Source of the DNA: Fibrobacteria bacterium
GTDB lineage: Bacteria > Fibrobacterota > Fibrobacteria > UBA11236
DNA length: 64,000 bases
Direction of reading: 5' to 3'
NCBI GenBank assembly: GCA_041746255.1
Contig: JBGTHM010000019.1
Coordinates: forward strand, 32,001-96,000
The notes beneath the pieces were generated by a model that was given only the letters and a program-made list of their open reading frames with translations, made no database searches and was not told where the DNA came from. The position numbers were made by a program, and so were the translations under genes. Positions 30,828-61,930 of the stretch are shown here, piece after piece (position 1 is the stretch's first letter; the number at the start of each line of letters is the position of its first letter).

Positions 30828-30828
30828 A

Positions 30829-32801: not shown

Positions 32802-32865
32802 CAGCTGCAATAATTGTACATAGGGATGGCGGGCGTGACTATGTCGGAATGGATTCTTTATAAAC

Positions 32866-34503: not shown

Positions 34504-34515
34504 ATCAATTCCGTC

Positions 34516-36000: not shown

Positions 36001-36131
36001 AGGCTATCGGGTAGTTTGGATTGCCGAGAAGGGATAAAGCCTCGAATAAACTAGAAAATTAGGCCAACTTCGTATTTTGTGTCTGGAACGCATGAAGCCA
36101 GAAGCATGCCTGCCCGATCCCGATATTAACT

Positions 36132-38759
36132 TTGATAGGAATGGATACCGATAATGCTCAAGCCACATCCGGGTGGGTGGTTTTAGGGCCTGTAAGCCTG
36201 GGGTTCAGCTTTTCTTTATTTCTCAGTCAGTCCCTTTCGAGGGGTGACTTTTCGGGAATTGCCCATACCCCTTTTTTAATCCAGGTGCTTTTAGGAACGA
36301 CATTGATGTTTTGGGGATTGCATCTCCTTCGTTCCGCCGCTATCCGATACGCTTCCGGATTGCTCGGGAAAAAGGCATTTGTGCGTTACCAAAGATGCGA
36401 GATCTATACTTACCTGGTATTCTCTTTGCCATTACTCGGTTACATCGGGGTGCTTCCATCCATTTTACTTTTCTGGGTAACGACTGCTTTCTATCTGATT
36501 CTGCAATTGGCTTTGATCGCCTTTTCCTCGAAAAGTACCGGAAGCACTGCGGTCACTCCCAGTGGAAAATTCGCCTTGCTCTTTCTCATCTCAGGCGCTT
36601 CCTCACTGATGTATCAAATCGTCTGGCAACGTGTCCTTTTCGCCGCCTATGGCATCAACATCGAAACGGTAACCTTGATAGTTTCGGTATTCATGTTCGG
36701 ATTGGGAATCGGCGCTCTATTGGGGGGTTACCTCTCTCAAAAATTCGAAAGGAAACTTGTTCTTCTTTTCATCCTATGCGAAGTATCCATCGGGCTCTTT
36801 GGTATTATCAGTATTCCCCTCCTCAAAACCGTGGCGGCCGGAACCGTGCACTATTCCCTCGTGCAAACCATTCCGGCGCTTTTCTTCCTTCTATGCGTCC
36901 CAACCATTTTCATGGGCGCCACCCTGCCTATTTTGACCGCTCATTTCCATGGCTATTTCAAAAACGTCGGCAAGTCGGTGGGAGTCCTTTATTTCTGCAA
37001 TACGCTGGGTGCCGCGACGGCATGTATCCTTACCGTGGACATCTTCTTTTTATTTTTCGGACAGAATCAAACCATACTTATCGCGGTGATTTTGAATTTA
37101 ATGATAGCAGTGCTTGCCTGGCTTTGGGGAGGAAGCCAAAAAGCCGGTACCAGTCCAGAACACGTTAAAGTCTCACAAATGGTACCGGTTCGCCCGCTTT
37201 CTTATGCGCTGATCCTAGCTTTATCCATGACCGCAGGGTTCATCTCCCTTAGCCAGGAAATCTTGTGGGTGCGCTTCGTTTCCTATATGTCGCAATCCCG
37301 GCCCCACGTTTTCGCGCATGTGCTGGGGTTTTTCTTATTGGGCATCAGTATGGGCGCCAAGTATGCGGAAAGGCTTTCGATTCAGAGCGCACTCCGCCCC
37401 ATAGTCCACATTGGTAAAATCTATGCGGTCAACGGCCTGCTTTTCCCCATCGGTTTTTTCGTCATCGGAGAAGCTGCCCAGTTTGATAAAACCTATGCGA
37501 TGGGCTTGGCTTATACTTTTATTTTCATAAACGCTTTTTTGACGGGACAAATTTTTCCGTTGTTGTGTCACTTTGGAATCAATAGGGAGATCCACGTAGG
37601 CGCTCCCGTCTCGCGGATTTATTTGGCAAATATCATCGGTTCCACCATAGGCCCATTGCTTATGGGATTTTTCCTCCTGCAATATTTTTCCTTAAAGATG
37701 AACATTCTACTCATGGGTTGGTTAGGCTTGCTGCTTAGCGGATCCTTGATGCTCCATGCCCCAGGTTTAAAGGGGCGGATATGGAGAATGGGCGGTGTCG
37801 CGGTACTTTCCGGGTTATGCTTGGTCGCGGTTGGAGAGGGAATGCGAAATGTGCTCGAAAAGGTGCATTTCGGTTCGGACTTTTCACTCAAGGGCCCTTA
37901 CAAGTATCTTCATGAGAACCGCAGCGGAATAATTGCCGTGAATTCGAACGAGAGCGGAGACATAATTTATGGCGGGGGAGCGTATGACGGGCACTTCGCC
38001 AACTCCATCCGAGAAGATTCGAATGGGATTGCCCGCACCTATATGGTGGCGGCAATTCATCCGGATCCCAAAAAAGTTTTGGTGATGGGATTGGCCAGCG
38101 GATCTTGGGTATGGGTATTGAGCCAATACGAAAAAATTGAAAGACTCACAGTAGTGGAAATCAACCCTGGGTATGCGGGAATTGTTTCCCGATATCCACC
38201 GTATAACGAGATATTGAACCATCCCAAGGTGCACCTCCACTTTACCGATATCCGTCGTTGGCTTTTGCGCCATCCCGACGAAAAATTCGATCTAATCGTC
38301 GCCAATGTAACCCACAACTGGAGAAGTAACACCACATCTCTTTTGTCCGCCGAGTTTTTACGTGTATCCAAAGATCATTTGAACCCGGGTGGCGTTCTTT
38401 ATTATAACTCCACAGGCTCAGAGCATGTACCTCACACGGCGGCTCGAAATTTTAAGCACGTGACAACCTACTCGAATTTTGTGGCCGCCAGCGACCACCC
38501 CTTCAGCCTGTCTGAAGAGCATAAGAGGAAGAATCTGAGCTTGTTTACTCGTGACGAACAACCTCTATTGGATACCACTGATACCGCTATAGCGTCCATC
38601 GTCCAGGCGATGGCTAGCCACCCGCTTGACGACCAGGTTAAGGAGTGGCTGCTGCGAACCGATCTACGCGAGATCACCGATGCCAATATGTTGACTGAAT
38701 TCAGGATGACCCGGTTGAGTTGGTTCAATCGCCGTTTGGCGTGGAGGCGGGGTTGGTAA
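36132..38759 (+). CDS. Multi-TM protein fused to a spermidine-synthase-like SAM-binding domain
   Basis: Duplicated TM unit (SGASSLMYQIVW.R / GFISLSQEILWVR; LYFCNTLGA / IYLANIIGS); VLVMGLASG, VEINP, FDLIV, LNPGG. Confidence 0.88.
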   Translation: MIGMDTDNAQATSGWVVLGPVSLGFSFSLFLSQSLSRGDFSGIAHTPFLIQVLLGTTLMFWGLHLLRSAAIRYASGLLGKKAFVRYQRCEIYTYLVFSLPLLGYIGVLPSILLFWVTTAFYLILQLALIAFSSKSTGSTAVTPSGKFALLFLISGASSLMYQIVWQRVLFAAYGINIETVTLIVSVFMFGLGIGALLGGYLSQKFERKLVLLFILCEVSIGLFGIISIPLLKTVAAGTVHYSLVQTIPALFFLLCVPTIFMGATLPILTAHFHGYFKNVGKSVGVLYFCNTLGAATACILTVDIFFLFFGQNQTILIAVILNLMIAVLAWLWGGSQKAGTSPEHVKVSQMVPVRPLSYALILALSMTAGFISLSQEILWVRFVSYMSQSRPHVFAHVLGFFLLGISMGAKYAERLSIQSALRPIVHIGKIYAVNGLLFPIGFFVIGEAAQFDKTYAMGLAYTFIFINAFLTGQIFPLLCHFGINREIHVGAPVSRIYLANIIGSTIGPLLMGFFLLQYFSLKMNILLMGWLGLLLSGSLMLHAPGLKGRIWRMGGVAVLSGLCLVAVGEGMRNVLEKVHFGSDFSLKGPYKYLHENRSGIIAVNSNESGDIIYGGGAYDGHFANSIREDSNGIARTYMVAAIHPDPKKVLVMGLASGSWVWVLSQYEKIERLTVVEINPGYAGIVSRYPPYNEILNHPKVHLHFTDIRRWLLRHPDEKFDLIVANVTHNWRSNTTSLLSAEFLRVSKDHLNPGGVLYYNSTGSEHVPHTAARNFKHVTTYSNFVAASDHPFSLSEEHKRKNLSLFTRDEQPLLDTTDTAIASIVQAMASHPLDDQVKEWLLRTDLREITDANMLTEFRMTRLSWFNRRLAWRRGW

Positions 38760-39177
38760 TGCCAAGGAATTGAAATAAACCTGAGTTCAGAGGTCCTGGA
38801 CGAAAAGTGAATGGATGGAGAATACCCAAACTGAAATTCGGTCCATTACGACGGGTGTATCGATTCTTGAAAAAGGTGTCACAAAGTCAGAGTAGATGCT
38901 CGTTTTAAACCTATGCATATGGGTCCAAATGCTACTTGGCGCATGGATTTATTTGAGGACGACCTGAGCATTGAAACCATTGCAGGAAAGCATGGTTCTC
39001 GGAGCGATGGAAAAGAATTTACAGCTAGTAGCGGCCCCAACGTCTTCTAAGTGATAGATCACTTGCCAGGGCCTGTTCGCTTAACCATAATATAGGATGA
39101 ATTTCTAATTTAAATTTGAAACGAAAATGTCCCCACTCAGTGTTTAATCAACTTTTAAGGCAGATAAATAGATACGT

Positions 39178-40329
39178 ATGAATAAAAAACCAGAAGTATT
39201 ATTGCCAGTCCTCACCAATCTGGCAACTGATTATCGGGTATACAAAATGTCCAAGTCCCTTTCGAATCTTGGATACCAGCCTATTGTTCTATGTGATAAG
39301 CCCAAAAATAAACTGGGGGAAGATTGGCAAGACATCCAGATTAAATTCGTGGTAAATGAATCCCACATGGATGGTTTTTTCAAGATATGGGTAAAATTCA
39401 TAATAAAATTATTCCCTATTTTTTTGCGCACTAAAAGCAAATTGTGGATTGTGGAAGACTGTCCAGCCCTCATGTTAGCTGCATTGATAGGTAGACTCAG
39501 AGGTGTTCAGGTAATTTACGATTCCCATGAAATTTTTCTGGAGACTCCAGAGGTGAAGCGGTCGCCTTTAAAACGGATTTTTTGGAAATTTTGGCACGAT
39601 GGAGGTCTTAAATGGGTCAAAAAAATGATCGTAGTAAGCCCCGATTCAAAAGAATTTTTTGAGAACCAATTTAAACACATTCACTTTTTAATCATGCCGA
39701 ATGTTCCTTTCAGTCCAAATCCTGTGAGTGAACCAAGAATCCCGGGTTCATTTGATAAACATGCAGTGGTATTGATTTTTCAAGGTTATCTCAGAGCCGA
39801 AAACAATTTCAAATCTCTGATAATGGTATTGCAAAAGCATAAAGGGTATCAGCTATTAATAGTTGGAGATGGACATGAAAAAGGAAATATTCAAAATTAT
39901 ATAAATGAAGCTGGGGTTCAAAATCAAGTAAAAATGCCCGGTATATTACCCTTTGGAGACCTTAAAGCCTGGACCGGTCAAGCTAATATTGGAATTCACC
40001 TTGTACGTCCTTGGTCATTGAATATCGATAGAACCTGGCACAATAAAATATTCGATTATATCCATGCGGGTCTTCCCGTATTAATGGGTGACACGGTTGC
40101 TTTGCGAACTCTACTAACAAAGCATAGGGTGGGTATTATTGTAAACCCTGATGATGAAAAAGACATCGAGCGCGGTATTAATGAATTGATTGAAAACTAT
40201 TCGTTTTATCAAGAAAACTGTAGACGGGCAGCTTTGGAATGGAATTGGGATTTCTTTGAAATTTTGTTGGGTGAATTTATTCGCGAAGGCGATGCCTCCA
40301 TTAATGAAATGCGAGTTTCTCCCGAATAG
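39178..40329 (+). CDS. Glycosyltransferase family 4 (low GC)
   Basis: DYRVYK, IYDSHE, IFQG, VGDG, NKIFDYIHAGLPV. Confidence 0.9.
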   Translation: MNKKPEVLLPVLTNLATDYRVYKMSKSLSNLGYQPIVLCDKPKNKLGEDWQDIQIKFVVNESHMDGFFKIWVKFIIKLFPIFLRTKSKLWIVEDCPALMLAALIGRLRGVQVIYDSHEIFLETPEVKRSPLKRIFWKFWHDGGLKWVKKMIVVSPDSKEFFENQFKHIHFLIMPNVPFSPNPVSEPRIPGSFDKHAVVLIFQGYLRAENNFKSLIMVLQKHKGYQLLIVGDGHEKGNIQNYINEAGVQNQVKMPGILPFGDLKAWTGQANIGIHLVRPWSLNIDRTWHNKIFDYIHAGLPVLMGDTVALRTLLTKHRVGIIVNPDDEKDIERGINELIENYSFYQENCRRAALEWNWDFFEILLGEFIREGDASINEMRVSPE

Positions 40330-40384
40330 GCTGAATTGCAAAGGTATGCGGAAAGTAGTAGATTAGCAGAATGAGGCGAGGCTG

Positions 40385-41164
40385 ATGGATCGAAATCAAC
40401 ATTCTTCCAAACTTGAACGAGAAAAAGAATGGTATAAAAGTAATGGCCGCCTCTCCGACCATCCCCTTAACTCGTCACTTTTTTATTCTTCCGCCCGTAA
40501 CAATTTCAATTATATCTTTCCAAAGAATATCATGGCCAAGTCACTGAACATGGCCCTAAGTGACAAACCTGAATCGAAAATTCTTTTGGCCCCGTTGGGG
40601 AGCGGGGATGACCTTTCCTACTTGAAGGGAAAAGGTCGGAAATTGACCGGTATTGACATATCGCCGGATGCGTTAGGAGAAGTATCTGACCGCGACGTGG
40701 ATAAGCTTGAGGGTGATATGTCGAATATGAACATGTTTCCAGAGGGTAGCTTTGATGTCGTAGTGACGCCATTATTTTTCCATCATTATATTCTCCATGG
40801 CTTCGACCCATTTTCTCATGAGTTGTTCCGTGTACTTAAGCCGGGGGGGACTTTCATTTCATTGGAGCCCAGTCTTTTTAATCCCATTAGCCTATTTGCC
40901 AGAACTGGTAAACGTATATTCGGGAATATAACCGGCCAAGTTGAAGATGAAGGGCCATTCATTCCTCAAAAGTTGGTGAATTCCTTGCGACGTGCAGGAT
41001 TTGTAAAACCCAAAGTATTGGGCGCCGGATTTTGCCATAACAGAATCCCCATCCCATTGGCGCGAGTGTGTAATTCTATTTCAAAACCATTCCTCAACAT
41101 CTTTCCTTTTAACATAATGTGCTGGATGTGTGTTTTCACGGCACGGAAACCATTCAACAACTAG
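40385..41164 (+). CDS. Class I SAM-dependent methyltransferase
   Basis: LLAPLGSG, GIDIS, FDVV, FFHH, RVLKPGG..ISLEP. Confidence 0.88.
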   Translation: MDRNQHSSKLEREKEWYKSNGRLSDHPLNSSLFYSSARNNFNYIFPKNIMAKSLNMALSDKPESKILLAPLGSGDDLSYLKGKGRKLTGIDISPDALGEVSDRDVDKLEGDMSNMNMFPEGSFDVVVTPLFFHHYILHGFDPFSHELFRVLKPGGTFISLEPSLFNPISLFARTGKRIFGNITGQVEDEGPFIPQKLVNSLRRAGFVKPKVLGAGFCHNRIPIPLARVCNSISKPFLNIFPFNIMCWMCVFTARKPFNN

Positions 41165-41374
41165 GCTGCTTACCATCCCAGTACAACTCATTGGTATATT
41201 TCGTCGCTAAGCTTCGTGCGGGAAGCTCACCCCGTAAATTCCTTTCGGGGATAGTTGAAAGAGTTCGTTTGCGACCTTTGGATCAGGCTTAACGAGGTCA
41301 TTCATGGACGCTACCGGTGCTTCTTTCCTCGCAAGGCGGTAACCACAACCCACTCGGGGCCTTTTCCCTTGGCA

Positions 41375-42457
41375 TCAAGCGAGAGCCGTACGATAAGATT
41401 CGGCAGTAAGACGTGCCGCTTCGGCCCAAGTATAGCGGCCCCAGAACTCTTCGGGAGGCGGAGGCAAGGGCTTCTCCACCGCATGGACCAAGGCGGACTG
41501 TAACGATTGGATATCGCCCGGTTTGCTATAGTGCGCATGGCGGCCAAGGTATTCGCGGACGAAGCCGCCCTCGGTGGCGACGACTTGCGCGCCTGCCTTA
41601 AGGGCTTCTAAAGCGGAAAGCCCCGTGGTTTCGAAAAAACTCGGTTGTGCGACCACGGCCGCTTCCGAAAACAATTCTATCGCGCGCTCATGGGAAACCA
41701 TTCCCCCGTATTGAATTCGGTCACCGTCCATTAAACCAAAAAATTCGCGTTTATAGGACCGGCCGCCATGCTCAGCGCTTCCAATGAAAATCAGGGAGTA
41801 GTCTTTAATTTTTTCCGCCTCGGCTTGAAAAGCTTTGGCTAGGGCAACTTGGTTTTTATTCGGTTCAATGCGGCCTGCGCAAACGATCAATTTCCGCCGT
41901 TGCTTGGGGGAAATGGGGCCGGTTTCATCCACGCCATTGGGGATTACCGCGAAGGGAGGGCGCACCCAGAGGCCCAGGTCCCGATCCATGGCATCCATTT
42001 CCATCTGGGAGTTGGGCAAAAGGACATCCACTCCCGTTACGACCTCGCGTGCTGCTGCGGTAAAATTCAACGTGCAACGCAAGCTAAAGGCCCTACCACC
42101 AAAAAGGGAATAGTAGACATCGCGAGCAGCGAAATACCGCTCCAGGGGAAAATTTCGAAGTCCAAACCGCCTGGAATAGAGAAGGCGTAAATCCGGGTAA
42201 GGATGCCAAATGGAAGACAGGACGATTTTTTTCCCCGCCTGCTTGGCGCGTTTGAACGTCACATAGGTGTCGGCGAGGTGGTTGAGATTAAAAAGGTGAA
42301 TGATATCGAAGCGGGCTAGCGGGGTGGAGCGGTCCGTCACTTCTACGTGAAAGCCAAGGGCCTCCAGCCCCGAACGGGTTTTCTCCAATTGAACCCAATC
42401 ACCATGGGCTTTACGATTTCGTACCGGGTGATTGAACATTAAGATATTTGCGGCCAT
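41375..42457 (-). CDS. Glycosyltransferase family 4
   Basis: GD.VQLEKT, LLPNS..E, GRIEPNKNQ, PSFFETTGLSALEA. Confidence 0.92.
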   Translation of the reverse strand: MAANILMFNHPVRNRKAHGDWVQLEKTRSGLEALGFHVEVTDRSTPLARFDIIHLFNLNHLADTYVTFKRAKQAGKKIVLSSIWHPYPDLRLLYSRRFGLRNFPLERYFAARDVYYSLFGGRAFSLRCTLNFTAAAREVVTGVDVLLPNSQMEMDAMDRDLGLWVRPPFAVIPNGVDETGPISPKQRRKLIVCAGRIEPNKNQVALAKAFQAEAEKIKDYSLIFIGSAEHGGRSYKREFFGLMDGDRIQYGGMVSHERAIELFSEAAVVAQPSFFETTGLSALEALKAGAQVVATEGGFVREYLGRHAHYSKPGDIQSLQSALVHAVEKPLPPPPEEFWGRYTWAEAARLTAESYRTALA

Positions 42458-42645
42458 GTGACGAGTAATTTAGAATACCACGGTGAATTAGGCCGGAAAA
42501 AGAAGTCCCAATTATTTTGGATTTATGGTTATTTAAAGAGCTGGAGACGGGAATTCGAATAAAAGAGTTCTTATCTTGGGTTCGTGCAGTTTCAACTAAA
42601 CTATTTCTGAATGCTTTTTAAAAATAAATACAATGGTTCAAGAGC

Positions 42646-43470
42646 ATGATTATATCGGAACATTCCATTCAGGATTTCTCCACCCAAATCGCCGCTCGAT
42701 TTAGCAGGGAGGCAAAGGCCTTAAGTGAATTTTGGAATAATTCTAAGCCGGTGCGTCATCTGGTTATCGATGACCTTCTGCCGATAGAATGGGCGAAAAA
42801 AATTGCTGCGAGCTTTCCGAAAATGGACCAACTCCGGCGCTATGAGAGTCGGAAGGAATATAAAGGCGTTGGAGTGGCGATGGATGAATATGCGCCTATC
42901 TTGAAAGCGATCACTTTTGCCTTTCAGGATCCGAAGGTCCTTGATGCGGTTATGGAGGTTACACAAATCGGTCGTTTACAGGCGGATGCCAATCTCTATA
43001 GCAGTGGGCTTAGCGCCATGGGGGAGGGCGATTTTCTTAATCCACATATTGACAACTCAGGCAACCCTTTGTTGCAACAATATCGCCGGATAAACGCGCT
43101 TTATTATGTAACGCCTGAGTGGAATCCCGATTGGGGAGGAAGTTTGGAGCTTTGGGATGCGAATCGTTCCAATCCAATCGTACTTCCAGCCCGATTCAAT
43201 CGACTCATTCTCATGAATACCAACCGTACATCGTTCCATTCCGTGAGCGCCATTAGGAGTTGCCAGGGTAAGACCCGGAATTGTGTCTCAAATTATTATT
43301 TCTCGCCGGAGTCGCCCGAAGGATACGAGTATTTCCATGTAACCTCGTTCCGTGGCCGACCGGAGCAACCGCTTCTCGATTCATGGCTTAGGATGGATGC
43401 AAGTGTACGGGGATTATATCGGCGCTTTTTCCCTCGTAAAGCGGAAGCTATCAAGCATAAATACCAATAA
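42646..43470 (+). CDS. 2OG-Fe(II) oxygenase (prolyl-hydroxylase-like)
   Basis: HIDN (HxD), WGGSLELWD, FNRL, SFHSV (His), distal Arg (TRNC). Confidence 0.88.
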   Translation: MIISEHSIQDFSTQIAARFSREAKALSEFWNNSKPVRHLVIDDLLPIEWAKKIAASFPKMDQLRRYESRKEYKGVGVAMDEYAPILKAITFAFQDPKVLDAVMEVTQIGRLQADANLYSSGLSAMGEGDFLNPHIDNSGNPLLQQYRRINALYYVTPEWNPDWGGSLELWDANRSNPIVLPARFNRLILMNTNRTSFHSVSAIRSCQGKTRNCVSNYYFSPESPEGYEYFHVTSFRGRPEQPLLDSWLRMDASVRGLYRRFFPRKAEAIKHKYQ

Positions 43471-52576: not shown

Positions 52577-53713
52577 ATGAAGGATAAGCCCCTGCTGGTG
52601 CTTTCACACGAGTTCCCTCCGGCGGGTGGGGGCGCGGGTCGTAACTTAGCGTTGCTTTGCGAAGAGCTATACCGTAGGAATATTCCCCTGGAAGTTTGGA
52701 CTACGGGGCTAAAGGAGGAGGATGCGGGATTTCCCTTCCGGGTCCGCCGATTATCAAAGGGGCGGAAACACCGGTTCGAAACGAATTTTCCAAAAATGGC
52801 CCAATTTCTCATCCGGACGTTGGCGCAAGCAACGCTATCCTCCCGTCCTCGCGCGATTTTTTCGAATATGGCTTTGCCTGCGGGTTTGGTGGGCGGTTTG
52901 CTGGCCAGTTATTGGCAAGTGCCGCACATTATATGGCATCACGGAAGTGACGTTCATGCGGGGATGCCCAAGGGAGCGGGTATAATCCAGCGGGTTTTGT
53001 TACGCTTGGTGTGGCGAGGCTCGGAGCATGCCTTTTTCGTTTCGGAAAGCCTGATGCAAATGGCGGCGGGCTATGGTGAAATTCCGTCAGCGTCTATCTT
53101 GCCCTCCTTTCCCGATCCTCGATATGCACAAACAGCCGCAAGAATGAAAAGTGAAAAAACCGATTCGCATGGACGGAAATACTTTTTGTTCGCCGGGCGC
53201 TTTGAACCGGTGAAAAACCCCATGCTGATCTTGGAGGCGGCGGCGCTGTGGAAGTCCGGCGGCGAAGAACTCAGGCCGATAAGGCTGGTGGGACAGGGAA
53301 GCTTGAGTGGGGAGCTTCGGAAAAAGGTGAAGGATTTGGGATTGGAGCCTTTCGTTTCCATCGAAGATCCGGTATCGCCCGAGGCCATGTCGGATTTGTT
53401 CCTGGGCGCCTATGCCCTCTTGGCGCCTTCGAGGGCCGAAGGACTCTATACCACGATTTTGGAAGCGGCGGCTTTCGGCGTTCCGGTAATCGGATCCCGA
53501 ACCGTAGGAATTCAGGACGCCATTGAAAGTGGAATAACCGGTGCGCACTTTCAGGAAAACAGTCCGGAAGAATTGGCGAAAGCGATGATACGGTTATCCA
53601 GCGACGAAAATGTCCGAAAAGAAATGGGAGAAGCGGCTGCCCGGAAAAATACCGGGCTCACTCCGGCTCAAGCGGCGGATGTGTTTCTGGCATCGCTGGA
53701 TTTCCTCCGGTAA
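52577..53713 (+). CDS. Glycosyltransferase family 4
   Basis: EFPPAGGGAG, HGSDV, GRFEPVKN, EGLYTTILEA. Confidence 0.92.
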   Translation: MKDKPLLVLSHEFPPAGGGAGRNLALLCEELYRRNIPLEVWTTGLKEEDAGFPFRVRRLSKGRKHRFETNFPKMAQFLIRTLAQATLSSRPRAIFSNMALPAGLVGGLLASYWQVPHIIWHHGSDVHAGMPKGAGIIQRVLLRLVWRGSEHAFFVSESLMQMAAGYGEIPSASILPSFPDPRYAQTAARMKSEKTDSHGRKYFLFAGRFEPVKNPMLILEAAALWKSGGEELRPIRLVGQGSLSGELRKKVKDLGLEPFVSIEDPVSPEAMSDLFLGAYALLAPSRAEGLYTTILEAAAFGVPVIGSRTVGIQDAIESGITGAHFQENSPEELAKAMIRLSSDENVRKEMGEAAARKNTGLTPAQAADVFLASLDFLR

Positions 53714-54923
53714 GGCCCGTGCTTTCCAGAAATTCCGCCATCAATTCCGCAGCCCGTGCTTGTCCCCTGGAATTCCAATGGTCGTTGCCATATCGGAAAA
53801 AGTAGGAGCAGGCGTCTTCCCCGCTCCAGGCGTCGAAGAGGTTGAGAACCGGAAGTCCGTGGCGGCGGGATAGATCCGTCAAGATAGCCGTCAAGCGTTT
53901 GGAATCGTATTCGGGATAGGCTTGCCTATCGATAGGAATATCATAGTCCGGACAAATATCGGAGGGATGGGCGATTACGAGAATTGCCATGGGCAAGTTG
54001 TACTGCGTGGCCAGGGCTTTAAATTCCCCGAGCACGTGGTTCATTAATTCGATTTTGTAAAGTGAAGATGCGGATTGGGGATAAAAGGCGACATCCGCGT
54101 CATAGCTGTCATTCAGTAAATTATGCACTGTGTCGTTTCCATCCCGTACGAAACTATGGTATTGCTGCTCCGCGGCAAGCAAGGCCCGCTCCAAAGACCC
54201 GGTTAAATAATTTCGAATGGATTCTGCGTCGAGATAATCCCTTTCCTGCCTTTTTTTCCAATGGCGCCAGATCTGCAATCTTGAACGTCCCCGGGGAAAG
54301 GCGGCAAGGTTCAAGGTCGATTCCAATTCCGGGCTGAGGGAATAATTATTCCGAATAACTAAGCCTTCGGAGATTGCACGAAAAATTTTATTGCGTAATA
54401 AGTCACCGTAGTCATTTCCGGAATAAATGGAAACGATGACCACATCCGGGGAGAAGCGAGGGATGTCTTCTTCGAGCCGCAGGAGAATCTGATCCGGACC
54501 ATATCCGACTACGCCCGCATTCAAGACTTCCCAATCCGGGAGCTTGCGATCCAGATAGCGAACGAAGGTGCTTTCGATGGGGGAATATTCCGCGGCGATA
54601 TAGGAGTCGCCATATACCATCATCCTTTTTCCCTCCGACTTGGAATAGAATTCCCGCTCGCGAAACCCCAGACTGTTGATCCGAACGGGAATGCCGTCTG
54701 GGGTGTTGTCGGGATGGTCGATGAAAACCTTTCCCCCATGGGGAACATGTTTGTGTAGCACCCTATCGTCAGGTTGGTAAATGGAGGAATGTATGGGAGC
54801 AAACACTCGAAGGCCGACCTCAATCAAGAATACGCCGATAATAAGGGACCCGATTAGAAGGGCACTATTGAGAAAGGCATTCCGGAGGCGACGGCTATTC
54901 ATGAATCCGATAAAACCCCCCAT
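53658..54923 (-). CDS. Membrane-anchored SGNH/GDSL family protein
   Basis: N-terminal TM ending EVGLR; INSLGFR, GDSY (Ser), NAGVVGYG, GNDYGD, NDHWNSRG; TGATG overlap with carbamoyltransferase stop. Confidence 0.85.
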   Translation of the reverse strand: MGGFIGFMNSRRLRNAFLNSALLIGSLIIGVFLIEVGLRVFAPIHSSIYQPDDRVLHKHVPHGGKVFIDHPDNTPDGIPVRINSLGFREREFYSKSEGKRMMVYGDSYIAAEYSPIESTFVRYLDRKLPDWEVLNAGVVGYGPDQILLRLEEDIPRFSPDVVIVSIYSGNDYGDLLRNKIFRAISEGLVIRNNYSLSPELESTLNLAAFPRGRSRLQIWRHWKKRQERDYLDAESIRNYLTGSLERALLAAEQQYHSFVRDGNDTVHNLLNDSYDADVAFYPQSASSLYKIELMNHVLGEFKALATQYNLPMAILVIAHPSDICPDYDIPIDRQAYPEYDSKRLTAILTDLSRRHGLPVLNLFDAWSGEDACSYFFRYGNDHWNSRGQARAAELMAEFLESTGLTGGNPAMPETHPPLEPE

Positions 54924-56791
54924 CAATCGGGATCCGGAAGTTTATCTCCCTCGGCATCGCGCCAAAGAGGCTGTTCCGATTTGCGGAAAATGAAGTCTTC
55001 CATTACCAGGTAGTCCATATCGGTGCGCATAAAGCAGCGATAGGCTTGTTCCGGGTTGAGTACGATGGGTTCGCCGCGGACATTGAAGCTGGTATTGACC
55101 AGCATCCCCATGCCGGCTCTCCGCTTGAAGGCTTCGAGTAACAGACGGAAGGGCGGATTGGTGGTCCGGTTGACGGTTTGCACTCGGGCGGAATAATCCA
55201 CATGGGTAACCGCGGGAAAGGCGGAGCGTTTATGGTAGAGCCTCTCTAACAGGGTGGAGTTTCCGGAGTCCTCCAGCCAGGGAGAGCGCAACTCTTCCCG
55301 AACCGGAGCGACCACCAGCATATAGGGTGAATCATCTAACATATCGAAATATAGGGGGGCATCCTCCTCCAGTACAGCCGGGGCGAAGGGCCGGAACCCT
55401 TCCCGGAATTTTATTTTGAGATTGAGCTTCCTTTGCATATCCTCTCTCCGAGGATCGCCCAGAATACTACGGTTGCCCAGAGAGCGTGGCCCCCATTCCA
55501 TGCGCCCCTGAAACCAACCCACTACCGCGCCCTCGGCGAGATAACCGGAAACCTCTTCGCAAAGAGCCGCTAGCGATTCGGGGCGGTGAAAAACAGCGTT
55601 ATGGCGCCGGGCGGTGCGGGTAATTTCATCTGCACCGAAGCGAGGACCCAGATAGGATCCCCGCATGGCGTCGCTTTCGCGTACGGCTGGGCGTGCACCC
55701 CCCATACCGATATGGTAAGCGGCATAGGCTGCGCCCAAAGCGCCTCCCGCATCTCCCGCCGCCGGTTGAATCCAGATGCGTTGGAAAATATTTTCACGCA
55801 GCAGTTTTCCGTTGGCGGTGCAATTCAGGGCCACGCCTCCCGCCAAGACCAGGTTTTCACTTCCGGTAAGTTTACGCGCGGTATGCGCCAGACGTAGCAT
55901 GATTTCTTCCGTCACTTCTTGAGCCGCCAATGCGAGATTCATGTCGGCTTGCGTCAACGGGGTTTCGGCTAAGCGACGGGGCCTGCCGAAAAGCGCCGCC
56001 CATTTTTCATCGCGGCACATGCGTAATCCCACGGGAAAATCGAAATAGTCCAGGTTCAGAAGAAGTGAACCATCGTCACGGACATCCACTAGTTCCGCCA
56101 GGATACGCTCTTTGTAAGTCGAGACGGCGGCGCTACCGGCGGAACCGTAAGGCGCCAATCCCATCAATTTGTATTCGCCGGAATTCACTTTGAATCCCAG
56201 AAAGTAGGTGAAGGCGCTATAGAGCAATCCCAAGGAATGGGGGAAGGCCAGCTCGCGGAGTACGCGTATATCGCGCCCGCTACCCAATGCGATGGATGTG
56301 GTGGTCCATTCGCCGACTCCATCGACCGTCAATATGGCGGCTTCATTAAAAGGTGAAGGATAAAATGCGCTGGCTCCATGGGACAGGTGATGCTCGGGGA
56401 AAAATAATTCAGGGCGACGCTTGAGAGGCCTGGCCGCGGCTGCTTCCAAGCCCTGCCACAAGGCGCGTTTCAAAAACAGTTTTTGTTGAATCCATATCGG
56501 CATGGCTTGCCAAAAACTAAGCAATCCCCTCGGGGCGAAAGCATGGTAGGTTTCCAATAGGCGTTCGAATTTGAGAAAAGGTTTGTCATAAAAAGCGATG
56601 GCATCCAGCTCATCGACATCCACGCCCGCCTCCTCGAGTACGTAGCGCACGGAGTTGAGTGGGAAAGATTCGTCATGACGCTTGCGTGTGAAGCGTTCTT
56701 CATGCGCGGCGGCCAGGATTTCCCCATCGCATAAGAGCGCGGCGGCGCTGTCATGGTAAAAACCGGAAATTCCGAGGATCCGTAGGGGCAT
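54923..56791 (-). CDS. O-carbamoyltransferase (NodU/CmcH/SxtI family)
   Basis: ILGISGFYHDSAA, EHHLSHGAS, GEYKLMGLAPYG, AGGVALNC, EWGPRSLGNRS, FREGFRPFAP, NTSFNVRGEP; start MPLRIL at 56791. Confidence 0.96.
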   Translation of the reverse strand: MPLRILGISGFYHDSAAALLCDGEILAAAHEERFTRKRHDESFPLNSVRYVLEEAGVDVDELDAIAFYDKPFLKFERLLETYHAFAPRGLLSFWQAMPIWIQQKLFLKRALWQGLEAAAARPLKRRPELFFPEHHLSHGASAFYPSPFNEAAILTVDGVGEWTTTSIALGSGRDIRVLRELAFPHSLGLLYSAFTYFLGFKVNSGEYKLMGLAPYGSAGSAAVSTYKERILAELVDVRDDGSLLLNLDYFDFPVGLRMCRDEKWAALFGRPRRLAETPLTQADMNLALAAQEVTEEIMLRLAHTARKLTGSENLVLAGGVALNCTANGKLLRENIFQRIWIQPAAGDAGGALGAAYAAYHIGMGGARPAVRESDAMRGSYLGPRFGADEITRTARRHNAVFHRPESLAALCEEVSGYLAEGAVVGWFQGRMEWGPRSLGNRSILGDPRREDMQRKLNLKIKFREGFRPFAPAVLEEDAPLYFDMLDDSPYMLVVAPVREELRSPWLEDSGNSTLLERLYHKRSAFPAVTHVDYSARVQTVNRTTNPPFRLLLEAFKRRAGMGMLVNTSFNVRGEPIVLNPEQAYRCFMRTDMDYLVMEDFIFRKSEQPLWRDAEGDKLPDPD

Positions 56792-56799
56792 GACCGGCT

Positions 56800-56949
56800 T
56801 TAAAACAAGGTGTATATGAAAGGGGCTATGGAGGACCCGCTGGAAAGCACTATCAAGGCGCCGAAAAGCAGCATGATGAGGATGATGGGAAGTAGCCAGA
56901 ATTTTTTGCGGTGCCTCATAAAGCCCCATAGGTCCTTGAATAAATCCAT
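56800..56949 (-). CDS. Small membrane protein, SxtK/DUF5989-like
   Basis: MDLFKDLWGFMRHRKKFWLLPIILIMLLFGALIVLSSGSSIAPFIYTLF. Confidence 0.9.
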   Translation of the reverse strand: MDLFKDLWGFMRHRKKFWLLPIILIMLLFGALIVLSSGSSIAPFIYTLF

Positions 56950-56974
56950 CTCGATTATCCTATTTGAGGGGTGT

Positions 56975-57358
56975 TCAGTAAGGCGCCTGCAAGTCTTTTT
57001 TGGTGAAGGCATGATCCCGGTCGACGAAAACGGAGCATCCGTCTTTTTTCCATTCGCGTAGGCGCATGGGGTCCGCGCCGAACATGCGCCGAATCAGGCC
57101 GACGGGAGTGGCGACGAAAAAATAGACCAAGGTTAAAATCACCTTCGACATGACCGTTCCGAGTTTTTCGGAGAAGCCGAACCAGGGCGCTGCCAAGGGA
57201 CGGAACAAGAGGGGCGCCGTCATGGCCAATACCAACACTACCAATGCGCCTGCGGTCCACAACCCTCCATCGCGGAATTGATGGATGATAAGCAGGACCA
57301 GCACCAGGGCCAATCCCGTATCTCTCGCCCTATCCTTTTGTAAATCGGGTTTGATCAT
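56975..57358 (-). CDS. SxtJ-like membrane protein
   Basis: RDTGL..., P.LFRPL...W..F...LG.VMSKVILTLVYFFVATPVGL..R.FG.DPM...DL..PY; ATGA overlap with upstream GT-C gene. Confidence 0.88.
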   Translation of the reverse strand: MIKPDLQKDRARDTGLALVLVLLIIHQFRDGGLWTAGALVVLVLAMTAPLLFRPLAAPWFGFSEKLGTVMSKVILTLVYFFVATPVGLIRRMFGADPMRLREWKKDGCSVFVDRDHAFTKKDLQAPY

Positions 57359-58941
57359 TGCCTGTCCAGCGCACGGATTCGGAAGTAAACCGCCAATTTC
57401 CCTGTCGTCAAAGTGTCCAGCTTAAGGCCGTCCGCCTCCATCCGGGCTATTGCCTGTTGCATTTCGTCGTCTTGGATTTCCGTATGGGTAAGCATAACAT
57501 ACTGAGGATTGAATTGCTTTCGACTTCGTTCTACCCACAGCGAGTCGCGAAACTCGTTCAAGCCGATACAATGGGCCTGGGTCAGAAAATTGACCTGGCA
57601 CAGTTGTCGGGCATAGTAGGTTTCCCGGGGATGCAAGAGAGCTTTTTGGATAGTCAAATGTTCCTGAATCTCAGATCGCCAGGATGAGGAATCGCTGTAA
57701 AATTTTTGGAAAAACCGATGGGGATGGTAAAACGAAAACGCCAAAGCCAATAGAACGAAGAGGGCGGCCGCATGCCCTACTCTTTTCGCATGTAGGCGTA
57801 ACTGTGGGGTCGCCATCGCCCACCGAATTCCCCGAAAGGTTTCGCCCAGACCATAAGCAAACAACAGGGGAAGGAAAGAACTGAAATACCGGGCTCCGGC
57901 CCAAGATCCGTAGGAAACGTAAACGCAGGCCAAAAAGGTCAGCAGAAAGCCGGCGGCCGCAAAGGGACTGTAAAAGGGGCGGCGGAAAAATAAAGCGCCG
58001 GCCACGGTCAGCAAGGGTAGGATCTGGCGGCCATGTTCATAAAAATCCAGGGCTTTCCAAAATCCTCCGATTCCCTGTACCATGCGCTGCAGCGGAAAAA
58101 GAATTCCGTGGCGGGTTAAAAATTCCAGCATGGACAAGGTGGTGGACTCGTCATTGGAGGCCCGCAACAGGCCTGCGTTTCCGGCGAAGTGAAAGGGGTT
58201 TCCAAAATGCAACGCGGTACGCATAAGCCAAGGAGACATGACAACCGCCATGGCCAGAAAAGCGAAGCTCAGGTGGGAAAGCGGCAGGGAATGCGATTTT
58301 CGTCGGCGGAAAAAATGCCAGGCGATGGCAGGAGCGAATAGCAGGGCGTTAGGTCGCACCAGATAAAGCAGACCGACTCCGGCTCCAAGCAGCATCCACC
58401 AAACGCGCCGGCTTTCGCCGCCGTTTATCGAATGCGCAATCACCGCAACCAAAACCAGTCCGAATAGGCCTTCGGAATAAATTCGGGTATTCCAATGCAA
58501 TTGATGCAGCGAAAATAATATGAGCAGCAATGAACCCCAAGCGGCATAGCGGCCATAGAGGCGCCGAGTCAGAAAAAACACCGATAAAGCAAAACCATAA
58601 TAGAGTAGGGTTATAACCCCGAATGCCACGCCAAGCGAGGGACCGGCCGGCCAAAAAGCCCAGGCCAACAGCAGGGTGAGCCCCGGATAGCGGAAATCGT
58701 CGGGGCGGGGCAATTGGTAGGGTGTTAACCAATGGTTTTCCAGCCACCGGGTCGTAAAGCCGTTGCCCTGTGCCAGTTCCGCTGCTACGGCTAGCCAGGA
58801 CCCTTCGTCTCCCTGGGGAAGCCCATAATGGTTGAGCCGCAGCAGTATAAAATGGAGTCCAAGTCCTAAAAGCAATAGGACTCCGGTAATTTCCGCGCCC
58901 TGCTTTAGGTGATAGGCGAAGCGATGGCTTAGGGTGTGCAT
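57355..58941 (-). CDS. GT-C fold glycosyltransferase (ArnT/PMT-like)
   Basis: First TM followed by GDE loop motif; YPG, YSEGLF, YLVRPN, PWLMR, RYF..FLP; many TMs. Confidence 0.82.
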   Translation of the reverse strand: MHTLSHRFAYHLKQGAEITGVLLLLGLGLHFILLRLNHYGLPQGDEGSWLAVAAELAQGNGFTTRWLENHWLTPYQLPRPDDFRYPGLTLLLAWAFWPAGPSLGVAFGVITLLYYGFALSVFFLTRRLYGRYAAWGSLLLILFSLHQLHWNTRIYSEGLFGLVLVAVIAHSINGGESRRVWWMLLGAGVGLLYLVRPNALLFAPAIAWHFFRRRKSHSLPLSHLSFAFLAMAVVMSPWLMRTALHFGNPFHFAGNAGLLRASNDESTTLSMLEFLTRHGILFPLQRMVQGIGGFWKALDFYEHGRQILPLLTVAGALFFRRPFYSPFAAAGFLLTFLACVYVSYGSWAGARYFSSFLPLLFAYGLGETFRGIRWAMATPQLRLHAKRVGHAAALFVLLALAFSFYHPHRFFQKFYSDSSSWRSEIQEHLTIQKALLHPRETYYARQLCQVNFLTQAHCIGLNEFRDSLWVERSRKQFNPQYVMLTHTEIQDDEMQQAIARMEADGLKLDTLTTGKLAVYFRIRALDRQ

Positions 58942-59955: not shown

Positions 59956-60900
59956 ATGCGAAAATCCACCGATATAACTACGGGACCTTCCGAATCGTTA
60001 CCCGATACCGTGAGAAGACCGCAATTAGATGCAGAACGGGTCGAAAAGGTCCTCAATCGAGTGCCGGGCTCTTTGACAATCGTTATACCGGTGTTCAACG
60101 AAGCCGAAGCCCTCCCGGACTTTGATCGAAGTTTACGCTCCGCCCTCAATGAAGCCGGTTTCGATTGCCGGGTGCTTTATGTCGATGACGGATCCACGGA
60201 TGCTTCCAGTCGAATATTAGCGGGCCTAGGAGCGGAATCACTTCGTCTCGAACGGAATCGCGGATACGGAGCCGCCATCAAAATCGGAATCCGTAAATCC
60301 GAAAGCGACTATGTCGCGATAATTGACGCGGACAGTACTTACAATCCTCGCGATTTGACCCGTCTCTTTTTGCAAATGGATGGTTGTGATATGATCATCG
60401 GTCTGCGTCCCCCCGAAAAAGGGCTGCGTCGCCTGGCCAAGGGTTTTCTGCAGTCCATCGCTTCCTATGCCGTCGAATACCCGATACCCGACATTAACTC
60501 CGGACTTCGGATATTCCGCCGGAGCCTGGCCCTGGATTTATACCGCCTTCTCCCCAACGGTTTTTCATTGACCAGCACCATCACGCTCGGGGCGCTTTAT
60601 GTCCCTTACATCGTGCGCTACGTTCCTATTGAGTACCTTCCCCGCGTCGGCAATTCGAAAATCCGTAAGGTAAAAGCCCTGATGAATTTTACCATGCTCA
60701 TTCTGCGTACCATGGTGCTTTTCAACCCTCTAAAATTCTTCCTCCCCACCAGCGCCGGATTTTTTATGGTGGGAACAGTTTTCCTCGTGCGCGACATTCT
60801 CGCTTATAATATCGCCCAAACTTCCATATTACTGATTACCAACTCCTTTATTTTGTTCGCCATCGGGTTATTGGCCGAAGCCATTCGTTGCCGGGAGTGA
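59956..60900 (+). CDS. Glycosyltransferase family 2 (polyprenyl-phosphate GT-like)
   Basis: VIPVFNE, VDDGSTD, NRGYGAA, IDADSTY, DINSGLR; two C-terminal TMs. Confidence 0.92.
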   Translation: MRKSTDITTGPSESLPDTVRRPQLDAERVEKVLNRVPGSLTIVIPVFNEAEALPDFDRSLRSALNEAGFDCRVLYVDDGSTDASSRILAGLGAESLRLERNRGYGAAIKIGIRKSESDYVAIIDADSTYNPRDLTRLFLQMDGCDMIIGLRPPEKGLRRLAKGFLQSIASYAVEYPIPDINSGLRIFRRSLALDLYRLLPNGFSLTSTITLGALYVPYIVRYVPIEYLPRVGNSKIRKVKALMNFTMLILRTMVLFNPLKFFLPTSAGFFMVGTVFLVRDILAYNIAQTSILLITNSFILFAIGLLAEAIRCRE

Positions 60901-60904
60901 GGAT

Positions 60905-61930
60905 ATGGTGGCTCTTGGCGATGCCGTTCCGAAATTCTCCCCCAAATCCCTGCTACTAACCATCGATACCGAAGCCGATAATCCCGAATGGGGCCGTGCC
61001 GGTGCTGCAAATACCAGCCATGTCAATCTGAAGGCCTTGCCCCGGTTTTTCCAAACCGTGAAGGAATTGGGTATACGACCCACCTTTTTCGTCACCCATT
61101 CCGTGCTGGAAGAGAAGGATTTCGCCTCTCGCATCGACCCCTTTCTGCAAGTGGGAGCCGAAATAGGCGCGCATTTACATGTCGAGGAAACTCCGCCATT
61201 CGGTCCTTGGGACGCCAAAGCGGAGGGAAGTCCCTTGCCGCTTAGCGATGAAATTCTGGAGGAAAAATTCTTCGCTCTCCATAACGCCATCACCGAAAAT
61301 TTCGGCTCACCCCTTTCATTCCGATCGGGTCGGTGGATTTTGGATGGCCGCTTGGTGAAGTTGCTGGAAAAATACCATTACCGTGTTGACTCCTCGGTTA
61401 CTCCGGGGATCTCTTGGCGTTTACTGGGGCGTCCCGATTACCTTACCTGCCCTTTGGGCGCCTATCGACTAAAGGGAGGGGGGGCCCCTCTAGACGTCGA
61501 CTCCTCGCTTTGGGAGGTCCCGGTCACCATTTGGCAGCCCCATCGTTTCAATTCTTTTCCGGGAGGTCTTTTACTAGGGCAGTTTTTAAGCATGCCCCTG
61601 CATTCCCGTACTTCCCTGACCGCAAGCATTCTGCGCACGCTTAGGCCGCGGGCCATAACCCCCCTTTGGCTTCGCCCGGCCTTTGTTTCTTCCGAGGATA
61701 TGCGGGAGGCGGCTCTGGGAGCATCCGCGCACTCGGACTACGCCCATATCATGCTGCATTCCAGCGAATTATTTCCGGGAACTTCGCCTTACGCTTCCAC
61801 TTCCGGCGAGGTGGACCGGGTTTTCCATCGTTTGGAAAAAATCTGCCGCGATCTACTTGAACGTGGATACCAACCGCGTACCCTAGGCGATTATGCCTCC
61901 CGCCTTTTTACTTCCCCCGTTACCTTGTAA
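60905..61930 (+). CDS. Polysaccharide deacetylase family (WalW-like)
   Basis: LTIDTEAD, EIGAHLH, SFRSGRW, VDSSVTP, EVPVT, HSSE. Confidence 0.85.
   Translation: MVALGDAVPKFSPKSLLLTIDTEADNPEWGRAGAANTSHVNLKALPRFFQTVKELGIRPTFFVTHSVLEEKDFASRIDPFLQVGAEIGAHLHVEETPPFGPWDAKAEGSPLPLSDEILEEKFFALHNAITENFGSPLSFRSGRWILDGRLVKLLEKYHYRVDSSVTPGISWRLLGRPDYLTCPLGAYRLKGGGAPLDVDSSLWEVPVTIWQPHRFNSFPGGLLLGQFLSMPLHSRTSLTASILRTLRPRAITPLWLRPAFVSSEDMREAALGASAHSDYAHIMLHSSELFPGTSPYASTSGEVDRVFHRLEKICRDLLERGYQPRTLGDYASRLFTSPVTL

Follow-up and report, generated by a model that had tools for sequence, protein, structure and literature searches.

A candidate MBOAT-free carbamoyl relay around a DUF5989/SxtK microprotein in a Fibrobacteria bacterium

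Known relays and how the locus compares

In the DltX-DltB-DltD, PatA-PatB, and AlgI-AlgJ-AlgX systems, an FxYxxF tail lies at the outer end of a transmembrane (TM) helix, and the genes for the system, including that for a membrane-anchored extracytoplasmic SGNH protein with a Ser and a His, stand in an envelope-glycan neighborhood. The carrier in the Dlt system is DltX, a separate microprotein of ~50 aa. According to the excerpted text of PMC12148441, FXYXXF is an "acyl shuttle" motif whose Tyr bears D-Ala in DltX and acetyl in PatA, PatA-type MBOATs carry it on their last TM helix at the periplasmic face, and the bare acetylated hexapeptide FIYANF of N. gonorrhoeae PatA gives its acetyl group to PatB. 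Here, we describe an operon in a 64,000-nt stretch of a Fibrobacteria genome (assembly GCA_041746255.1, contig JBGTHM010000019.1, positions 32,001 to 96,000; called the window below, with positions counted along it), all genes of which lie on the minus strand. In order, it encodes a methyltransferase, a GT-C-type glycosyltransferase (GT-C), an SxtJ-family membrane protein, a 49-aa DUF5989/SxtK peptide with an FIYTLF end, a NodU/CmcH-type carbamoyltransferase (CT), and a TM-anchored SGNH protein. We regard it as an even call whether Tyr46 of the peptide covalently carries a carbamoyl group to the SGNH protein, within a four-part relay that has no MBOAT.

The module formed by the last four genes works like Dlt and PatAB with respect to its motif, its microprotein, and its SGNH protein, but it is not a member of those systems. 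Unlike them, it has neither an MBOAT nor an AT3 pore protein, its donor is a soluble ATP-dependent CT, and the group concerned is carbamoyl. As third membrane component it has the small SxtJ, in which no catalytic residue is conserved, and no family link to DltX was found.

Three further systems share parts of this arrangement. HypF, a relative of the CT, carbamoylates the C-terminal Cys of HypE via carbamoyl-AMP, as described in a passage of PMC9633730; the likeness extends to the combination of YrdC-like and Kae1-like domains in the enzyme and to the placing of the group on a partner's flexible C-terminal tail. On the other hand, the HypE acceptor is a Cys of a 35-kDa soluble protein, the group is dehydrated to cyanide, and neither an SGNH protein nor a membrane takes part. 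In the saxitoxin cluster, sxtI (O-carbamoyltransferase), sxtJ, sxtK, and sxtL (GDSL lipase) carry consecutive accession numbers in the gene listing of PMC2684587, the part of that source used here. These are the same four gene families in a row, compared by gene listing and family name, and the four-gene module would therefore have entered the saxitoxin cluster as a block. The sxt genes serve a small-molecule pathway, whereas the module here and in most of the 80 related loci described below stands alone or beside glycan genes. As far as the excerpt of a 2026 preprint goes, SxtI, SxtJ, and SxtK are still only "hypothesised to work in conjunction" (10.64898/2026.06.11.731795). Finally, among solved structures, the SGNH protein most closely resembles CgnD, an enzyme of the crocagin pathway; a CT, CgnI, also belongs to that pathway, and CgnD acts close to the aromatic C-terminal end, IYW, of a peptide. 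CgnD differs in being soluble and in having been assayed as a slow leader peptidase, and the extract of PMC10070186 from which these points are taken mentions no SxtJ or SxtK homologue. Judged from result listings and from excerpts of the papers cited here, our literature searches found no work on DUF5989 and none linking SxtJ/SxtK or carbamoyltransferases to the acyl-shuttle motif.

The peptide, its tail, and its partners

The peptide reads MDLFKDLWGFMRHRKKFWLLPIILIMLLFGALIVLSSGSSIAPFIYTLF, followed by a stop codon, and consists of an amphipathic N terminus, the basic stretch RHRKK, one TM helix, an SSGSSI linker, and the C-terminal APFIYTLF. It carries a charge of +4 before the TM helix and none after it, and its tail is predicted from the positive-inside rule to face outside. 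The genome encodes a single DUF5989 copy. Among all 23,590 open reading frames (ORFs) of at least 40 aa in the whole genome, exactly 4 end in F[ILVM]Y..F, namely, the peptide and three MBOATs, and the relaxed pattern [FYW][ILVM]Y..[FYW] added no further ORF to them. The MBOATs end in ...NPQEFIYFQF, ...HAPFLYFQF, and ...YQAPFIYFQF, and the peptide is like them in having a TM helix, a short linker (6 residues in the peptide), and an APFIYxxF-type C terminus. When the peptide profile was compared with one of these MBOAT tails, the last 10 residues aligned end-to-end with 60% identity (E 7e-4, hhalign probability 27%). The initial annotation had noted no MBOAT in the window, and none is in the operon; the three MBOAT genes lie on other contigs (loci L002 1048-3453; L003 3-2529, minus strand; L004 1045-3537). 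Directly after each of them comes the gene of a protein of 320-351 aa with an N-terminal anchor; the protein in L002 has no Pfam family match.

The tail is kept among homologues of the peptide. A word-indexed search found 2489 DUF5989 homologue clusters at 90% identity, and in all 120 representatives listed, whose tails we read, the sequence ends in F[IV]YT[LVI]F directly before the stop (100 FIYTLF, 12 FIYTVF, 6 FIYTIF, and 2 FVYTLF). Both the Tyr and the terminal Phe, the conservation of which had been put forward as a check on the relay, are thus present in 120 of these 120 close homologues. An exhaustive HMMER search returned 3339 representatives at 50% identity; among the best 150, F[IV]Y..F stands at the very C terminus in 115, and the other 35 are garbled ORF calls or calls extending beyond the motif, in one case into the N terminus of the CT. 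Residues R14, K15, K16, W18, P21, V34, P43, F44, I45, Y46, T47, and F49 are invariant in a 22-sequence alignment, which means strong constraint on the tail as well as on the N-terminal, cytoplasmic part. A Pfam scan of the peptide at E values up to 10 matched DUF5989 and DUF5976 only. As to fused forms, none of 26 longer proteins has an MBOAT Pfam domain, and the five longer DUF5989 proteins that we inspected (P0293, P0288, P0278, P0285, and P0207) are read-through or frameshifted calls or single records. One ESM Atlas cluster of 79 proteins of ~185 aa, 11% of them with DUF5989 (score 0.75), is a lead for SxtJ-peptide fusions only.

The CT matches Carbam_trans_N (PF02543; 301 bits, E 1.4e-89) and Carbam_trans_C (PF16861; 232 bits, E 2.8e-69), and with both the Kae1-like N-terminal and the YrdC-like C-terminal domain matched, it belongs to the NodU/CmcH/TobZ class III. 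It is not NodU itself, scoring 130 bits against the NodU equivalog model with its cut-off of 1000. Enzymes of this family form carbamoyl-AMP from carbamoyl phosphate and ATP, which is established chemistry. No signal peptide or TM segment is visible in the CT sequence. Its orthologues adjoining the peptide are 52-64% identical across phyla.

The SGNH protein has the blocks GDS (106-108), GND (170-172), and H383. The GDSY motif that had been named as its nucleophile site is present as VYGDSY with Ser108 (422-aa numbering; the gene has an alternative TTG start at 54926), and G106, S108, H383, and G388 are conserved across 45 SGNH relatives encoded near the peptide. An N-terminal hydrophobic segment occurs in 42 of these 45; the N-side of this segment is the more basic one in 31, the two sides are equal in 5, and the N-side is less basic in 6, from which we predict an extracytoplasmic catalytic domain. 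Many larger relatives are SGNH-TPR fusions. The score of our protein against ALGX (PF16822) is 18.3 bits, below the cut-off of 26.5, and a relative in L084 reaches 42.4 bits. When the family profile was compared with the MBOAT partner in L004 (contig C126), which itself passes the ALGX gathering score, the two matched over 267 columns (hhalign probability 98.5%, E 3.2e-15); of the two other MBOAT partners, one matched weakly (E 6e-5) and one did not match. Against PDB sequences, the profile found AlgX (2.9e-13) and AlgJ (2e-12), both with the C-terminal half only, CgnD (3.4e-10), B. cereus PatB1 (6e-4), and generic GDSL esterases. In an AF2 model (pLDDT 75.4), a helix at 10-41 and a small beta part are followed by an SGNH core with a poorly modelled insertion. 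Its best structural match is CgnD (PDB 8a2n; VIA Z 23.2, rmsd 3.1, 241 residues), aligned over the N-terminal beta part and the SGNH core, with generic SGNH esterases and thioesterases at Z 15-17. DltD, PatB, AlgX, and AlgJ are not among the Foldseek/VIA matches listed, which we do not count against the kinship shown by the sequence profiles. The claim of an SGNH protein with Ser and His that is related to acyl-relay partners is thus borne out by its sequence kinship to an MBOAT partner and to AlgX/AlgJ, and its outward orientation by prediction. Two further SGNH paralogues are encoded in the same genome (L135 4687-6826, E 3e-37; L136 3-947, E 1e-36), one beside fatty-acid-desaturase-like and flagellin genes and the other beside two GSDH-like genes; these neighbors tell little about function, and the genome-wide ORF scan found no tyrosine-tailed ORF near either.

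SxtJ usually has three hydrophobic segments followed by a strongly basic C-tail with 5-10 Lys/Arg and an aromatic last residue, and conservation reaches 85% only at W59 and P85. In an alignment of 46 sequences, the SxtJ C-termini read acidic or polar, x, [KRNH], [PQ], [FYW], e.g., EKPF, ENPY, and KNQF, which makes this a second conserved aromatic end within the module.

At least 585 species genomes encode the peptide, and we examined the best 80 loci, from many phyla, calling components by phmmer and locally iterated HMMs. Two peptide patterns, including the tail itself, served to find these loci, so that the presence of F[IV]Y..F before the stop in 80 of 80 is partly by construction. Of these loci, 72 contain a CT, 75 an SxtJ, and 48 a member of the SGNH family, whose gene lies at most 500 bp from the peptide gene in 26 loci and at most 3 kb in 40. 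It is present in 32 of the 48 loci that have at least 5 kb on both sides. By chance, ~2% of 16-kb stretches would contain such a gene (6 genes in the 4.59 Mb of the window's genome), and MBOAT-partner-type SGNH genes are ~30-fold enriched beside the peptide. The gene order varies (CT-J-K, J-K-CT, CT-K-J, and K-CT-J), mostly on one strand, with exceptions in L029 and L050. The module ranges over Pseudomonadota (including Pelagibacteraceae), Nitrospira, cyanobacteria, Bacteroidota, Acidobacteriota, and others. Genes of many kinds flank the modules (88 in all), and no MBOAT gene is among them. The co-occurrence of SxtJ, SxtK, CT, and SGNH genes, which the initial annotation had suggested surveying, is therefore recurrent across phyla without an adjacent MBOAT. 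Five genomes seemed to have no SGNH gene next to the peptide gene; in all five, the top genome-wide SGNH match lies within about 20 kb of it. In five of five genomes with a CT-less peptide locus, a CT is encoded elsewhere in the genome. In Trichodesmium erythraeum IMS101 (L037; genome G001, ~2.546-2.565 Mb), about ten SGNH paralogues, one with an internal TAA, adjoin sxtJ and the peptide gene, and the only CT of the genome is ~22 kb away. Five other cyanobacterial loci (L061, L065, L071, L073, and L083) have the arrangement CT-SxtJ-peptide followed by three SGNH genes.

A 3.6-kb Pyrinomonadaceae contig (L052 50-3635) encodes an SGNH protein of 318 aa, the peptide, an AT3 acyltransferase (PF01757), and a GT4, with no CT or SxtJ on it and a CT on another contig of that genome; the DUF5989 peptide may also serve an AT3 system there. 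In a Nitrospira locus (L068 4014-10540), sxtJ and the peptide gene stand among FemAB/GNAT-like, DegT aminotransferase, polysaccharide deacetylase, and ATP-grasp genes, and the only CT match is a fragment at the upstream edge, ~8 kb off.

CT genes with a tyrosine-tailed peptide gene were also found in phages. A viral search with the single CT sequence gave nothing, and one with a CT alignment gave 13 loci; a word-indexed protein search with a 40-aa phage peptide gave 7 clusters. The phage CTs (L092-L095 and L098-L134) are 35-38% identical to the CT of the window and precede a basic peptide of 36-40 aa that has no TM helix (maximum 17-aa hydropathy 0.25) and ends in DPF[TN]YKN[FLH]. The set of 37 loci, with 25 distinct peptides, was gathered with a pattern containing DPF[NT]YKN, so that its tail conservation (a PFxYxxX end in 35 of 37, a PFxYxxF end in 29 of 37) is partly by construction. 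The CT is encoded somewhere in 31 of the 37 loci and ends at most 51 nt upstream of the peptide in 28. The phage peptides are like the DUF5989 peptide in being tiny and basic, in being encoded right beside a CT, and in their PFxYxx[FLH] end, and unlike it in having no TM helix, SxtJ, or SGNH protein. With hhalign, DUF5989 and the phage peptides had no profile similarity, and we do not claim homology between them.

Other phage contigs encode a CT with a mini-SxtJ, a CT with a mini-SxtJ and an SGNH protein, or the peptide with a CT. The mini-SxtJ proteins, of 48-61 aa, correspond to the last TM helix and basic tail (L087-L089, L091 4839-4988; L090 6782-6964); they adjoin CTs 48-52% identical to that of the window, and in L090 a gene for a TM-anchored SGNH protein follows. 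In L092 (4992-10589), the CT gene is followed by that for a 38-aa peptide ending in DPFTYKNF, and the downstream ORFs resemble QueD, QueE, and GTP cyclohydrolase I by eye, a context that hints at a nucleic-acid target for the soluble pair.

A proposed relay and the alternatives to it

In the relay that we propose, the cytoplasmic CT would make carbamoyl-AMP from carbamoyl phosphate and ATP, and the peptide, held in the membrane with SxtJ, would take the carbamoyl group on Tyr46 of FIYTLF. The CT would dock via the N-terminal helix and RKK of the peptide and via the basic tail of SxtJ. The outward-facing SGNH protein would then take the group on Ser108, with His383, and hand it to a hydroxyl of an envelope glycan. 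In the window, the likely acceptor is a glycan whose synthesis or decoration takes place outside the cytoplasm, that of the neighboring GT-C, GT2, and GT4. We infer, rather than observe, the topology, every covalent step, and the acceptor. Tyr46 and the CT could meet in one of three ways. The stretch of 11 residues that links the TM helix to Tyr46 might dip into a cavity of an SxtJ oligomer, as the DltX tail does into DltB; the uncharged C-terminal half, with the conserved P21, G30, and SSGSS, might switch between two states, a full span and a hairpin that leaves both ends in the cytoplasm; or the peptide might be a single-use carrier that receives its load before it is inserted. Serine hydrolases readily accept carbamoyl groups from aryl carbamates, which makes transfer from Tyr46 to Ser108 chemically plausible. 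If true, the relay would be a third route, beside MBOAT and AT3, for bringing activated groups to extracytoplasmic polymers, and it would extend the acyl-tyrosine shuttle to carbamoyl chemistry. It would also predict a widespread and so far unnoticed O-carbamoylation of envelope glycans, give sxtJ and sxtK a concrete role, and supply a reason for the GDSL lipase gene sxtL after them.

Several points weigh against such a relay. Carbamoyl-serine enzymes usually turn over slowly, as carbamate inhibitors show. The carbamoylated saxitoxin product is a small molecule that is further N-sulfonated by enzymes using PAPS (3'-phosphoadenosine 5'-phosphosulfate), which fits cytoplasmic carbamoylation better. 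The acceptor site of the CT is on the cytoplasmic side, and the tail of the peptide is predicted to be outside; we found no route for carbamoyl across the membrane in the module. In the related GdmN, moreover, the acceptor is enclosed in the Kae1-like domain with no access to bulk solvent, as stated in the consulted portion of PMC9633730. SxtJ had been suggested to replace an MBOAT, which the alignment does not support: beyond W59 and P85, no His, Ser, Cys, or Tyr is conserved in it, and thus no conserved catalytic residue. SxtJ looks like a scaffold that docks the CT rather than a stand-in for a catalytic MBOAT. As originally conceived, the relay therefore stands as to its motif, the kinship of the SGNH protein, and the co-occurrence of the genes, and it falls short as to SxtJ and the passage through the membrane. 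No SGNH-family gene lies within 8 kb in 32 of the 80 loci. The likeness of the peptide to the MBOAT tails resides in about 8 residues. The peptide had also been described as ending in a DltX-type tail, which holds for the FxYxxF motif at a free C terminus and not for membership in the DltX family; no DltX model matched in the Pfam scan at E values up to 10 (HMMER filters drop most matches above ~0.1). Likewise, no solved chain matched the peptide, and the profile search found no DltX-like chain in the PDB, the only matches at E values up to 10 being at chance level (2m3f and the YkoE segment GSSVASFIYDLF). A complex prediction for SGNH, SxtJ, and peptide scored 0.00; it was run without controls and counts neither way.

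The phage loci add to these points, since SGNH or SxtJ matches occur in 0 of the 37 loci (within 6 kb). The tail motif accordingly tracks the CT rather than the SGNH protein and can work without a membrane. This points to direct contact between the CT and the tail as the way in which the tyrosine is loaded, and direct loading by a cytoplasmic CT is in tension with a permanently periplasmic tail. The SGNH partner, for its part, is found only with the membrane form, which fits its unloading a tail that ends up outside.

The best surviving alternative, which we hold to be possible though doubtful, is that the peptide and SxtJ form a noncatalytic tether or activator of the CT at the inner membrane face. 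Carbamoylation would then take place in the cytoplasm on a membrane-proximal substrate, e.g., a lipid-linked sugar, with the PFIYTLF tail as a binding epitope or plug and the SGNH protein acting separately in the periplasm. Consistent with this, the trio of CT, SxtJ, and peptide is the core of the module (72 and 75 of the 80 loci), the SGNH gene being the one missing in 32, and the cytoplasmic part of the peptide, LWGFxRxRKKFW, is conserved, as is the basic tail of SxtJ. The phages with a CT and mini-SxtJ only (L087-L091), the lack of catalytic residues in SxtJ, and the preprint wording quoted above, at least in the excerpt, also agree with it. However, a tether leaves three findings unexplained: the invariant, uncharged, extracytoplasmic P-F-I-Y-T-x-F end across phyla, the otherwise MBOAT-only occurrence of this tail in the genome, and the ~30-fold enrichment of MBOAT-partner-type SGNH genes beside the peptide.

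A broader form of the carrier idea, which we think rather unlikely, is that PFxY(xxF) micropeptides are general carbamoyl carriers for one branch of the NodU/CmcH family. The tail Tyr would receive the group straight from the CT, just as the C-terminal Cys of HypE does from HypF, the carrier being a soluble basic helix in phages and the membrane peptide DUF5989/SxtK in bacteria. In the latter, the uncharged half (P21, G30, and SSGSS-IAPFIYTLF) would swing between the membrane faces with the help of SxtJ, and carbamoyl-Tyr would be delivered to AlgX-like SGNH transferases without an MBOAT or AT3.

It is improbable, in our estimation, that the SGNH protein is instead a hydrolase, i.e., a decarbamoylase or esterase that edits the modification and does not receive a group from the peptide. 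SxtL has been suggested to be an editor of this type. SGNH proteins are mostly hydrolases, and besides CgnD, the fold matches of our protein are the esterases and thioesterases at Z 15-17. CgnD itself proved a slow hydrolase in assays, and its pathway likewise includes a CT (PMC10070186, in the part cited above), and PatAB is accompanied by the SGNH esterase Ape1 (PMC12148441, likewise in excerpt). The sequence kin, however, are transferases (AlgX, AlgJ, PatB1, and the MBOAT partner), and several acceptor specificities fit better with the 3 to ~10 tandem SGNH paralogues of cyanobacteria.

That the tail is alike by coincidence, its hydrophobic aromatic end only anchoring a tiny protein of unrelated function, is disfavored to the point of being very hard to credit: the motif is short, the hhalign probability against an MBOAT tail is low, and there is no profile similarity to the phage peptides or to any DltX model, but all four ORFs of 23,590 with the ending are the peptide or MBOATs, the tail is near-invariant among the homologues listed (120/120; 115/150), and MBOAT-partner-type SGNH genes are independently enriched beside the peptide.

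Coordinates and neighboring genes

The five genes from GT-C to SGNH in the initial annotation were all found where it had placed them on the minus strand, with the overlaps that it gave, ATGA between GT-C and SxtJ and TGATG between CT and SGNH. Their order is also correct, except that the operon does not start with GT-C; the methyltransferase gene, one gene before, most likely opens it. GT-C was ruled out as a part of the conserved module, with 0 of the 80 related loci having a phmmer homologue.

Table 1. Features of the operon and of the genes next to it (positions in the window)
Feature	Position	Strand	Remarks
GT4 glycosyltransferase, convergent to operon	52577..53713	+	Glycos_transf_1, E 8e-28
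N-terminally TM-anchored SGNH protein, AlgX/AlgJ-related, 421 aa from ATG	53658..54923	-	Lipase_GDSL_2, 37.4 bits
NodU/CmcH/TobZ-type (class III) O-carbamoyltransferase (CT), 622 aa	54923..56791	-	PF02543 + PF16861
DUF5989/SxtK microprotein, 49 aa	56800..56949	-	PF19451, 93.3 bits vs cut-off 27, positions 1-49 of 49
Hexapeptide F44-I-Y46-T-L-F49 codons	56803..56820	-	Tyr46 codon 56812-56814; candidate carbamoyl-carrying tyrosine
SxtJ-family small membrane protein, 127 aa	56975..57358	-	PF19588, 38.9 bits vs cut-off 24.4
GT-C-type (PMT_2/ArnT-like) polytopic glycosyltransferase, 528 aa	57355..58941	-	PF13231, 26.4 bits vs cut-off 26.1, borderline
Class I SAM methyltransferase, 285 aa	58955..59812	-	Methyltransf_11, E 8e-10; stop 13 nt before GT-C start
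GT2 glycosyltransferase, C-terminal hydrophobic helices, divergent from operon	59956..60900	+	Glycos_transf_2, E 6e-24

The spacer between SxtJ and the peptide is 25 nt, with AGGA 9 nt ahead of the peptide ATG, and that between the peptide and the CT is 8 nt. The 3' ends of the SGNH and GT4 genes overlap convergently by 56 nt (53658-53713). At the other end, the methyltransferase and GT2 genes are divergent, with a gap of 143 bp between them; GT2 is a possible polyprenyl-phosphate sugar synthase that would feed GT-C with its donor. It is followed, after a 4-nt gap and translationally coupled, by a 341-aa ORF (60905-61930) with no Pfam or NCBIfam match.

Elsewhere in the window, positions 29124-43470 hold a polysaccharide-type cluster, where GC content falls to 43-49% at 36-44 kb. 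Its genes encode a sulfatase-family membrane enzyme, methyltransferases, a DegT aminotransferase, an Asn-synthase-like protein, a Wzx-type flippase, two GT4 glycosyltransferases, a 2OG oxygenase, and an 875-aa protein with a weak match to MFS_1 (below cut-off) and spermine-synthase-like matches.

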